Source: Acidimicrobiia bacterium (GTDB lineage: Bacteria > Actinomycetota > Acidimicrobiia > IMCC26256 > PALSA-555). From it: DNA of 64,000 nucleotides. This document shows, piece by piece, positions 56,044 to 57,093 of the stretch. The notes beneath the pieces are model-generated. The model was not told the DNA's origin. It saw nothing but the letters and a program-made list of their open reading frames with translations, and searched no databases. The translations under genes were made by a program, and so were the position numbers. Every line of letters begins with the position of its first letter. Within the stretch, counting starts at the first letter, position 1. The stretch covers positions 5,373-69,372 of the forward strand of contig DASUAO010000054.1 of assembly GCA_035763745.1 (NCBI GenBank), given 5' to 3'.

Positions 56044-57093
56044 TCACGCGTCGTAGCCGGGCCGGCCAGCGGCTTCCCACTGCTGATAGAAGTCGAAGAA
56101 GGCCTGGCCGAACGGGTCCTCGCCACGCACCGGCATCGAGCCGCGGTGGATGGTCCAGTCCTCCGGAGCGAGCGCCATCGCGCGTCCGAGCGCCTGCTCG
56201 GCGGCATCTGGGGCGTCGGCGCGCAGCAGGTGCATCGCGAGCCGCCGTTCCGCGCGCGCGGCCTGGAGGTCGGCGCTCGGCGGCGCGAGCCGGGCGCGCA
56301 GCTCGTCCTTGCTCATCGGTGCGACCCCGTCGTGCACCCAGGCCCGCAGCGCATCGTGGTGCACGGAGGAGTCGAGCTGGGTGAAGTCCTTGAATCGGTC
56401 GTCGGCGGGGGCGATCGACGGAGGGCGCACGACCACGCCGTCCTCGTCGATCCAGACCGTGGTGGGGACGTTGACGATGCCGTAGCGCTCGGCGACGACG
56501 TGGTCGCGGTCCACGAGCACCGGATACGTCAGGGGGCTCGTGGGCTCGTCGACCGCCCACTGGCGGATCGCGTCGACGTCCTCGTCGAGGGCGACCGCGA
56601 GGATGACGAGCCCCTCACCGAGCTCGGTGGCCAGCTCCTGCCAGACCGGCAGGTCCCATCGGCAACCTCACCACGAGGACCAGGCGAGCAGCATCCGCTT
56701 GCGCCCCGCGTAGTCGTCGAGTGAGATCTCGTGGCCGTCGAGGTCGGGCAGCGTGAACGCCGGTGCCCGGTGGTCGACGAGGGCAGGGTCGAGCGCCTCG
56801 GTGGACTCGCCGAGCACCGCGACCGCAGGGTCGTTCGACATCGCGAACGGTCGCCGCAGTGCTTCGGCGACGCCCCGCAACGAGACGGCTCCGTCGACGT
56901 GGAGCTCGTCAGGGTGGCGGATCTGGACGCAGACGTTGCCCCGGCACAGACCTTCGGGGCGCAGCGTCCAGCCGATGGCGGGCTCGAGCATCGCGGGATC
57001 GAGGAGGACCGTGTCGGTCTCGACGTCGCCGAGGACGTCGACGACGCGGTCGCCGTCGACGACGGTCACGGTCCCGGGAGCCACGAGCCGCAC
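56044..57093 (-). CDS. Thioredoxin-fold (TlpA/ResA/redoxin-like) protein with in-frame TGA at the CxxC position: candidate selenoprotein (W-U-G-C)
   Basis: ORFs 56044..56520 and 56668..57774 share one frame, and the whole stretch between them is open. The only interruption is the TGA at 56670-56668, in the context [19 protein letters not shown]. High-GC3 coding continues on both sides. The GTG start at 57093 is tentative. Confidence 0.6.
56626..56667 (-). other. Candidate bacterial SECIS hairpin
   Basis: The mRNA reads UGA GGUUGCCGAUGGGA CCUGCC GGUCU GGCAGG AGCUGGCCACC. The 6-bp upper stem closes a GGUCU loop at +24..+28 from the U of UGA. A lower stem, GGU..GCCG pairing with UGGC..ACC, is possible. 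Confidence 0.5.

Follow-up and report, generated by a model that had tools for sequence, protein, structure and literature searches.

The Global Ocean Sampling survey, published in 2008, lists a selenocysteine (Sec; U) protein family named 'Prx-like (UGC-containing)' (pfam00578, motif UGC), with 46 Sec sequences and 855 Cys homologues, which is commoner in non-marine samples (PMC2398784). This UGC family also appears in the table of a 2026 review as a selenoprotein family 'predicted with high confidence' (PMC13188914). NCBIfam holds a related model, NF041054, 'ResA-like WAxxUGC motif-containing protein' (WAxxUGC_long); a literature search under the name 'WAxxUGC' found no paper. Here we analyze a gene that carries an in-frame TGA codon in a 64,000-nucleotide stretch of an Acidimicrobiia bacterium (GenBank assembly GCA_035763745.1, contig DASUAO010000054.1, positions 5,373 to 69,372), referred to as the window. 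An earlier reading of the letters alone (the original prediction) had proposed that this TGA is the Sec codon of a thioredoxin-fold redoxin, at the position of the nucleophilic Cys. Comparative analysis bears this proposal out through the alternation of Cys and TGA among homologues, the deep persistence of the TGA, and a hairpin specific to the TGA forms. On these grounds, UGA139 is very probably decoded as Sec by means of a downstream Sec insertion sequence (SECIS) hairpin, in a member of the UGC-containing ResA/TlpA-like family of oxidoreductases. With Cys substituted for Sec, the window protein matched NF041054 with an E value of 4e-63 and 213.7 bits, residues 28-316 aligning to model positions 8-316 of 354.

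The gene and its active-site codons, as deduced from the frame and from alignments of homologues, are as follows.

57084 to 56044, minus strand: predicted complete selenoprotein gene of 346 codons including Sec139, with terminal stop TGA at 56046-56044; aligns with Cys homologues of 345-347 residues.
56670-56668, minus strand: codon 139, a UGA predicted to specify selenocysteine, opposite the first Cys of W-C-G-C, which is invariant in homologues.
56662 to 56664, minus strand: codon of Cys141 (TGC), the probable resolving Cys of U-G-C, invariant in alignments of 26 and 117 sequences.

Translation of the minus strand from 57093 to 56044 revealed a single internal stop, the TGA at 56670-56668. 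The original prediction had described a frame of 350 codons broken solely by this TGA; the sole stop was found as described, whereas the length is 346 codons counted from GTG 57084. This GTG is most likely the start, rather than the in-frame GTG at 57093, because a 1-nucleotide indel in a 90%-identical relative (L001; GCA_035529215.1, contig DATKXD010000561.1) throws the upstream GTG out of frame. The homologues in the 26-sequence alignment also start at the position equivalent to GTG 57084. As the original prediction had stated, both halves of the gene have high third-position GC (GC3, >0.85 on both sides) and the downstream half is free of frameshifts. This TGA is the only one in the window flanked on each side by 50 stop-free codons of coding-like composition (GC3 of >0.85 and GC2, its second-position counterpart, of <0.58). 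The composition screen detected no other TGA with a coding signal on both sides in the 64-kb window, and the same screen of 853 kb of Acidimicrobiia flanks detected no other two-sided TGA with a redox motif. TGA is otherwise the usual terminator in the window, ending 30 of the 35 high-GC3 open reading frames (ORFs). Thus, the observation is real and not a chance pattern, since the sole TGA with coding sequence on both sides occurs where TGA is an ordinary terminator.

A protein search of a large collection returned 857 matches, the best of which were full-length proteins of ~345 residues from Acidimicrobiia-type metagenomes, named 'peroxiredoxin' or 'TlpA disulfide reductase family'. The residues W138-C139-G140-C141-R142 were invariant in the homologue alignments (26 and 117 sequences), indicating that the TGA occupies exactly the position of the first Cys of this motif, which reads W-S-S-W-[TGA]-G-C in the window. 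HMMER alignments to 2yp6, 4hqz, 4nmu, and 3kcm introduced a gap into the motif (wsswCG.Crwdlp versus WASWCGpCKKSMP), and Cys141 aligned with the second Cys of the CxxC of ResA-type proteins of the PDB across this 1-residue gap. As read from these alignments, the predicted site is U-G-C, of the CxC type, with one residue deleted relative to the CxxC of ResA and TlpA. The TGA had been placed at the first Cys of a CxxC motif, giving UxxC: the position of the nucleophilic Cys was correct, but the motif is W-U-G-C.

The Cys-substituted protein matched the Pfam families AhpC-TSA (PF00578, E value of 2.6e-19) and Redoxin (PF08534, E value of 4.7e-14), in each case as one domain running across the stop. 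The AlphaFold model of a Cys orthologue 66% identical to the window protein (P0001; mean predicted local distance difference test score of 94.8, predicted template modeling score of 0.92) comprises three parts, an N-terminal α/β domain of ~95 residues (about 100), a thioredoxin-fold core, and a helical C-terminal domain. In this model, C-G-C sits between the strand formed by residues 130-136 and the helix formed by residues 141-159. Foldseek comparison with the PDB matched the core (middle domain) alone, the top matches being ResA, DsbE, DsbF, and TlpA-like proteins with target-relative template modeling scores of about 0.8 (about 0.82 for ResA/DsbE). The region had been recognized from its letters as the active site of a TlpA/ResA/redoxin-type protein, in agreement with the Pfam matches across the stop and with the resemblance of the model to ResA. 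Two further features lie within these domains.

56428 to 56778, minus strand: thioredoxin-fold catalytic domain (AhpC-TSA/Redoxin, ResA/TlpA-like), residues ~103-219, from Pfam, PDB sequence matches, and the P0001 model.
56929 to 56946, minus strand: invariant Cys47-x4-Cys52 pair (GLCRGNVCV) of the N-terminal α/β domain, from invariant columns in the 26- and 117-sequence alignments.

The Cys47-x4-Cys52 pair is a candidate second redox center, a function suggested by its invariance. The N-terminus of the window protein, MAPGTVTVVDGDRVVDVLGDVETD, reads as acidic and devoid of any hydrophobic stretch, and the protein is apparently cytoplasmic. Two Sec-containing metagenome members (L025 and L076) start with a typical signal peptide, e.g., MKHFLILTILITGAATYAAAQ or MRTRRLLALLLGTLVLAGG, unlike the Acidimicrobiia forms. 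The UGC family seems, therefore, to include both exported and cytoplasmic versions.

Since TGA is one substitution away from TGC or TGT and many orthologues carry Cys, a recent nonsense mutation might have inactivated a Cys-type redoxin, leaving a pseudogene; that neither the window nor the related loci yielded Sec genes is in keeping with this. The distribution of the TGA argues against this. The truncated protein matches P0023 (90% identical) and P0118 (77% identical) are encoded by contigs that bear the same TGA, and the codons beside it differ synonymously in these relatives (L001 and L002, respectively; GGT/GGC/GGG and CGA/CGT/CGC). The DNA pattern W-x-x-W-TGA-G-C-R was present in at least 120 metagenome contigs, of which ~113 among the matches listed are homologues whose frame is open and conserved to either side of the TGA, and the same TGA occurs in at least 146 distinct homologous sequences. 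A protein-profile scan of species-representative genomes gave 80 loci, mostly from Acidimicrobiia metagenome-assembled genomes, with TGA at the position of codon 139 in 37 and TGC or TGT in 43. At precisely this codon, orthologues encode Cys or carry TGA, and the TGA forms keep the hairpin described below; comparison of orthologues had been proposed as a check along with the original prediction. The nearest species representatives, JAWOIO010000127.1 (L126; 87% identity), JANOWV010000051.1 (84%), and JBKJJI010000275.1 (84%), all have TGA, as does the chromosome OY970233.1 (L139). In a neighbor-joining tree, the window lies inside a clade whose every member has TGA and which reaches down to ~62-64% identity; at least four TGA clades are interleaved with Cys clades.

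The pattern of substitutions leads to the same view. In comparisons with the four closest relatives (L001 and L126 to L128; 84-90% identical), each half of the gene had at least as many synonymous as non-synonymous codon differences, with 62 synonymous and 22 non-synonymous differences downstream of the TGA in the case of L127. In comparisons with the more distant L129 to L139, the upstream (N-terminal) half had more non-synonymous than synonymous changes. Across the 146 TGA-form segments, synonymous variants occur in the Gly, Cys, and Arg codons that follow the TGA directly, among them exchanges between CGN and AGR for Arg. A recent nonsense mutation is excluded by the occurrence of the TGA in 146 homologous sequences and in 37 of the 80 species-level genomes, together with the synonymous excess in both halves among the closest relatives; maintenance of a covarying hairpin specific to the TGA forms adds to this, and we regard a pseudogene as scarcely credible. 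Sequencing error as the source of the TGA, like pseudogene formation, is ruled out by its conservation across relatives. Two of the TGA homologues themselves look damaged: L020 (1353-1415, minus strand) has a 1-nucleotide deletion in the 3' arm of the hairpin that shifts the frame, and L014 loses the frame directly after G-C-R (around position 6753). These two sequences may be genuine pseudogenes or assembly errors.

An alternative is that the gene is genuinely split, a 138-residue N-terminal protein ending at the UGA and the C-terminal part being translated from an internal start. Automated calls do give two products. The ORF listing of the window contains a 5' ORF ending at the TGA and a 158-residue 3' ORF starting at GTG 56520. 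Logan gene calls on contigs identical to the window give 141 plus 158 residues, and GCA_035529215.1 has calls of 138 residues (hypothetical protein) plus 202 residues. The latter is P0023 (L001, 943-1551), for which GenBank annotates the part after the TGA alone as a 'TlpA disulfide reductase family protein' starting at a CTG codon within the SECIS hairpin. These calls are what the original prediction had anticipated from ORF-based annotation. However, the called downstream starts differ (CTG in L001, GTG 56520 in the window), and they would remove the active site and the β1-α1 region. In addition, the nine codons that follow the TGA (G-C-R-W-D-L-P-V-W) are conserved at the protein level while varying synonymously, and where this locus carries a Cys form, its product is one protein of 345-350 residues. 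Translation as two separate proteins is accordingly very improbable, and decoding of the UGA within one gene is the reading that we retain.

The original prediction had also reported a SECIS-like hairpin downstream of the TGA. Its parts, identified by folding and by comparative data, are as follows.

56653 to 56637, minus strand: SECIS-type hairpin in the coding sequence, with a 6-bp stem beginning 15 nucleotides after the UGA.
56653-56648, minus strand: 5' arm of the hairpin, CCUGCC.
56647-56643, minus strand: loop of the hairpin, GGUCU.
56642-56637, minus strand: 3' arm of the hairpin, GGCAGG.
56667 to 56626, minus strand: possible extended lower stem, seen in single-sequence folds only.

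When 146 distinct TGA-form segments were aligned, the stem was paired in 90.6% of the cells. Pair 24-40 was CG in 85 segments, UA in 28, GC in 5, and AU in 1, and pair 25-39 was CG in 127 and UA in 12. None of 500 shuffles reached the observed covariation or percentage paired. The covarying bases fall at synonymous sites, namely, the third position of an Asp codon, the first position of a Leu codon (CUG/UUG), and the third position of a Gln codon (CAG/CAA), which points to a constraint at the RNA level. The hairpin is a property of the TGA forms and is mostly broken in the Cys forms. At least five of the six core stem pairs were present in all 37 TGA forms versus 11 of the 43 Cys forms, with mean local folding energies of -12.0 and -7.0 kcal/mol, respectively. 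The pentapeptide encoded at the hairpin is LP[VG]WQ in all 37 TGA forms, versus 18 different pentapeptides in the 43 Cys forms. The Leu codon is CTG in every one of the 37 TGA forms, CTC being the commonest in the Cys forms; across the 146 Sec sequences, this codon is CTG in 128, TTG in 16, and CTC in none.

The hairpin resembles the SECIS element of E. coli fdhF, in which a stem-loop likewise lies in the coding sequence shortly after the UGA. In E. coli, the G and U of the loop of this element are the SelB contacts. Counted from the U of UGA, the loop is GGUCU at nucleotides 24-28 in the window and GGUC at nucleotides 22-25 in fdhF (extracted and folded for this comparison), i.e., 2 nucleotides closer, and the G-U dinucleotide is at nucleotides 25-26 and 23-24, respectively. 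Unlike the fdhF element, the window hairpin has a different stem sequence and no bulged U was identified in it; the need to encode the protein motif DLPVWQ constrains it as well.

Several results weigh against Sec decoding. The single-sequence fold of the hairpin was not more stable than that of shuffled sequence (z = 0.05), a comparison that is uninformative at 71% GC, and the evidence for the hairpin must therefore be comparative. Rfam searches gave no relevant match, whether at the gathering threshold for the whole window or at a permissive threshold around the TGA; this result is tempered by the poor representation of bacterial SECIS elements in Rfam. With E. coli SelA, SelB, and SelD as queries, tblastn detected no selA, selB, or selD in the 64-kb window, nor in the 1.44 Mb of related loci, and ARAGORN detected no tRNA in the window and no tRNA-Sec in the related loci. 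The absence of sel genes from the window says little, since the window is a segment of the chromosomal core, containing genes for PNPase, RNase J, FtsK, RecA, LexA, and an intein-containing class II ribonucleotide reductase. Against NF041054, the window protein scored 213.7 bits, short of the equivalog cutoff of 300 bits. Finally, the table of the 2026 review shows no experimental Se incorporation for any member of the UGC family (PMC13188914).

On the other side, selA, selB, selC, and selD are reported in all 84 complete genomes of Actinomarina, which belongs to another order of the class Acidimicrobiia (2026 preprint, bioRxiv 10.64898/2026.04.03.716425), indicating that Sec decoding exists in this class. 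The remaining alternative is a read-through free of selenium, in which a near-cognate or suppressor tRNA would decode the UGA as Cys or Trp, with the hairpin acting as a generic stimulator. Downstream stem-loops can stimulate read-through in other systems, a precedent that favors this alternative along with the unverified Sec machinery of this genome. Nevertheless, TGA is the standard terminator here (30 of 35 ORFs), the recoded site is exactly the redox-active Cys, which is a hallmark of Sec/Cys pairs, and the loop has the GGUC sequence that SelB binds in fdhF, at an almost equal distance from the UGA. The family is furthermore curated as a selenoprotein family (NF041054, PMC2398784, PMC13188914). 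We consider selenium-free read-through to be very unlikely and continue with insertion of Sec at UGA139.

The gene structure, the Cys/TGA alternation, the conserved TGA, the covarying hairpin specific to the TGA forms, and the fold are established by these data; that Sec is actually inserted, and with which chemistry, substrate, and reductant, is inferred as follows. A single gene would produce an oxidoreductase of ~346 residues, apparently cytoplasmic, with three domains and thiol/selenol chemistry. The CCUGCC-GGUCU-GGCAGG hairpin would act as a bacterial SECIS, bringing SelB-GTP-Sec-tRNA(Sec) to the ribosome. Sec139 would lie at the N-terminal end of helix α1, in the position of the nucleophile, and its selenolate would attack an oxidized substrate (disulfide, sulfenate, or peroxide). 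Resolution by Cys141 would follow, with formation of a strained U-G-C selenenylsulfide, and a thiol donor would return this to the reduced state. The donor may be the invariant C47-x4-C52 pair, as a candidate internal or relay redox center.

A broader reading can be put forward tentatively, although we think it rather less probable than its negation. Sec use would be widespread in soil and freshwater Acidimicrobiia, the machinery having so far been reported only for the marine Actinomarinales; the syntenic locus would have undergone four or more exchanges between Sec and Cys within a group of close relatives; and U-G-C together with C-x4-C would form an intramolecular redox relay, a chemistry uncharacterized for any thioredoxin-fold enzyme. 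If this were true, the repeated Sec/Cys switching would amount to a replicated experiment of nature on the conditions under which U-G-C is superior to C-G-C.

Two conserved neighbors lie downstream of the redoxin gene in the same orientation.

55123-56022, minus strand: SMP-30/gluconolactonase-like gene, conserved downstream neighbor.
53973-55049, minus strand: Zn alcohol dehydrogenase gene, conserved downstream neighbor.

The order redoxin, SMP-30/gluconolactonase-like, alcohol dehydrogenase is common to Sec-form and Cys-form loci, and the two neighbors are probably operon partners of the redoxin gene. In L126 to L145, UvrD-like and histidine-phosphatase genes lie upstream in divergent orientation, and the redoxin, SMP-30/gluconolactonase-like, and Zn alcohol dehydrogenase genes are followed by a PIG-L deacetylase gene. 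This shared genomic context in the clade of the window and its nearest relatives indicates that the Sec and Cys forms are orthologous. In the window, the PIG-L family deacetylase (52973-53878, plus strand) is closest to bacillithiol/mycothiol deacetylases or amidases of the BshB/Mca type, and the Zn alcohol dehydrogenase is closest to dehydrogenases that are dependent on N,N-dimethyl-4-nitrosoaniline or belong to class III (mycothiol- or glutathione-dependent formaldehyde dehydrogenases), both below the curated NCBIfam cutoffs. These assignments are a weak hint of a link between the locus and low-molecular-weight thiol chemistry. Ten loci (L148, L150, L155, L157, L158, L161, L165, L166, L169, and L175) have a tRNA-Cys (GCA) gene 1.3-3 kb upstream of the redoxin orthologue. 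Every one of them is a Cys form, with no TGA form among them; the adjacency is probably a clade-specific synteny.

Elsewhere in the window, the ORF for the class II (B12-dependent) ribonucleotide reductase (39416-43798, plus strand, ~1460 residues) carries an intein, with Pfam Intein_splicing and LAGLIDADG homing-endonuclease domains between the barrel and TSCPD domains. A frame of 483 codons with high GC3 and no Pfam match (635-2086, plus strand) follows directly on a riboflavin kinase/FAD synthetase gene, in-frame past its TAG stop.

The practical value of these results lies in annotation, and no new category is opened. Because the Acidimicrobiia branch scores below the NCBIfam cutoff, its members stand in the databases as truncated 'TlpA family' fragments or as split ORFs, and selenoproteome counts for the class Acidimicrobiia are therefore underestimated. 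At this locus, many Sec and Cys orthologues can be paired that are closely related and have identical genomic context, and the SECIS is very clean, its covariation falling at synonymous positions. Both may be used for training predictors of bacterial SECIS elements and selenoproteins and for studying Sec-to-Cys exchange.

Among described proteins, those of the ResA/TlpA/DsbE (CcmG)/StoA type (PDB 1st9, 1su9, 4nmu, 3gl3, and 1jfu) share with the window protein the thioredoxin fold with the same insertions (phmmer E values down to 1e-13) and a nucleophile at the N-terminus of helix α1. They differ by their W-C-x-P-C motif, in place of the C/U-G-C of the window family (C-G-C without exception in 117 homologues). 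Each consists of a single domain and is anchored in the membrane or exported, whereas the window protein has an additional domain at either end and an N-terminus that is not hydrophobic. Sec is absent from all of them, unlike the window protein as predicted here.

The NF041054 family is closer. It shares with the window protein the W-[A/S]-x-x-U-G-C active site, a length of ~350 residues made up of N-terminal, redoxin, and helical C-terminal parts, the segment DLP[VG]WQ encoded at the hairpin, and the existence of many Cys homologues. The N-terminal W39/G45/C47/C52 motif of the window protein is that of the soil members. The window motif is W-S-S-W-U-G-C, with Ser replacing Ala, and the window protein lacks the signal peptide found in some soil members. 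Scores against NF041054 were 315, 347, and 542 bits for the soil-metagenome members L008, L011, and L045 (range, 315-542), 285 and 148 bits for the metagenome members L016 and L076, 233-240 bits for the other Acidimicrobiia Sec forms, and 197-241 bits for Cys forms. Since its own score is below 300 bits, the window gene belongs to a related sister branch and is not an equivalog by the NCBI criterion. Judged from its sequence, the gene is a new, sub-threshold member, representing the Acidimicrobiia branch, of the already described UGC selenoprotein family, and its recognition is a correction of annotation rather than a discovery.

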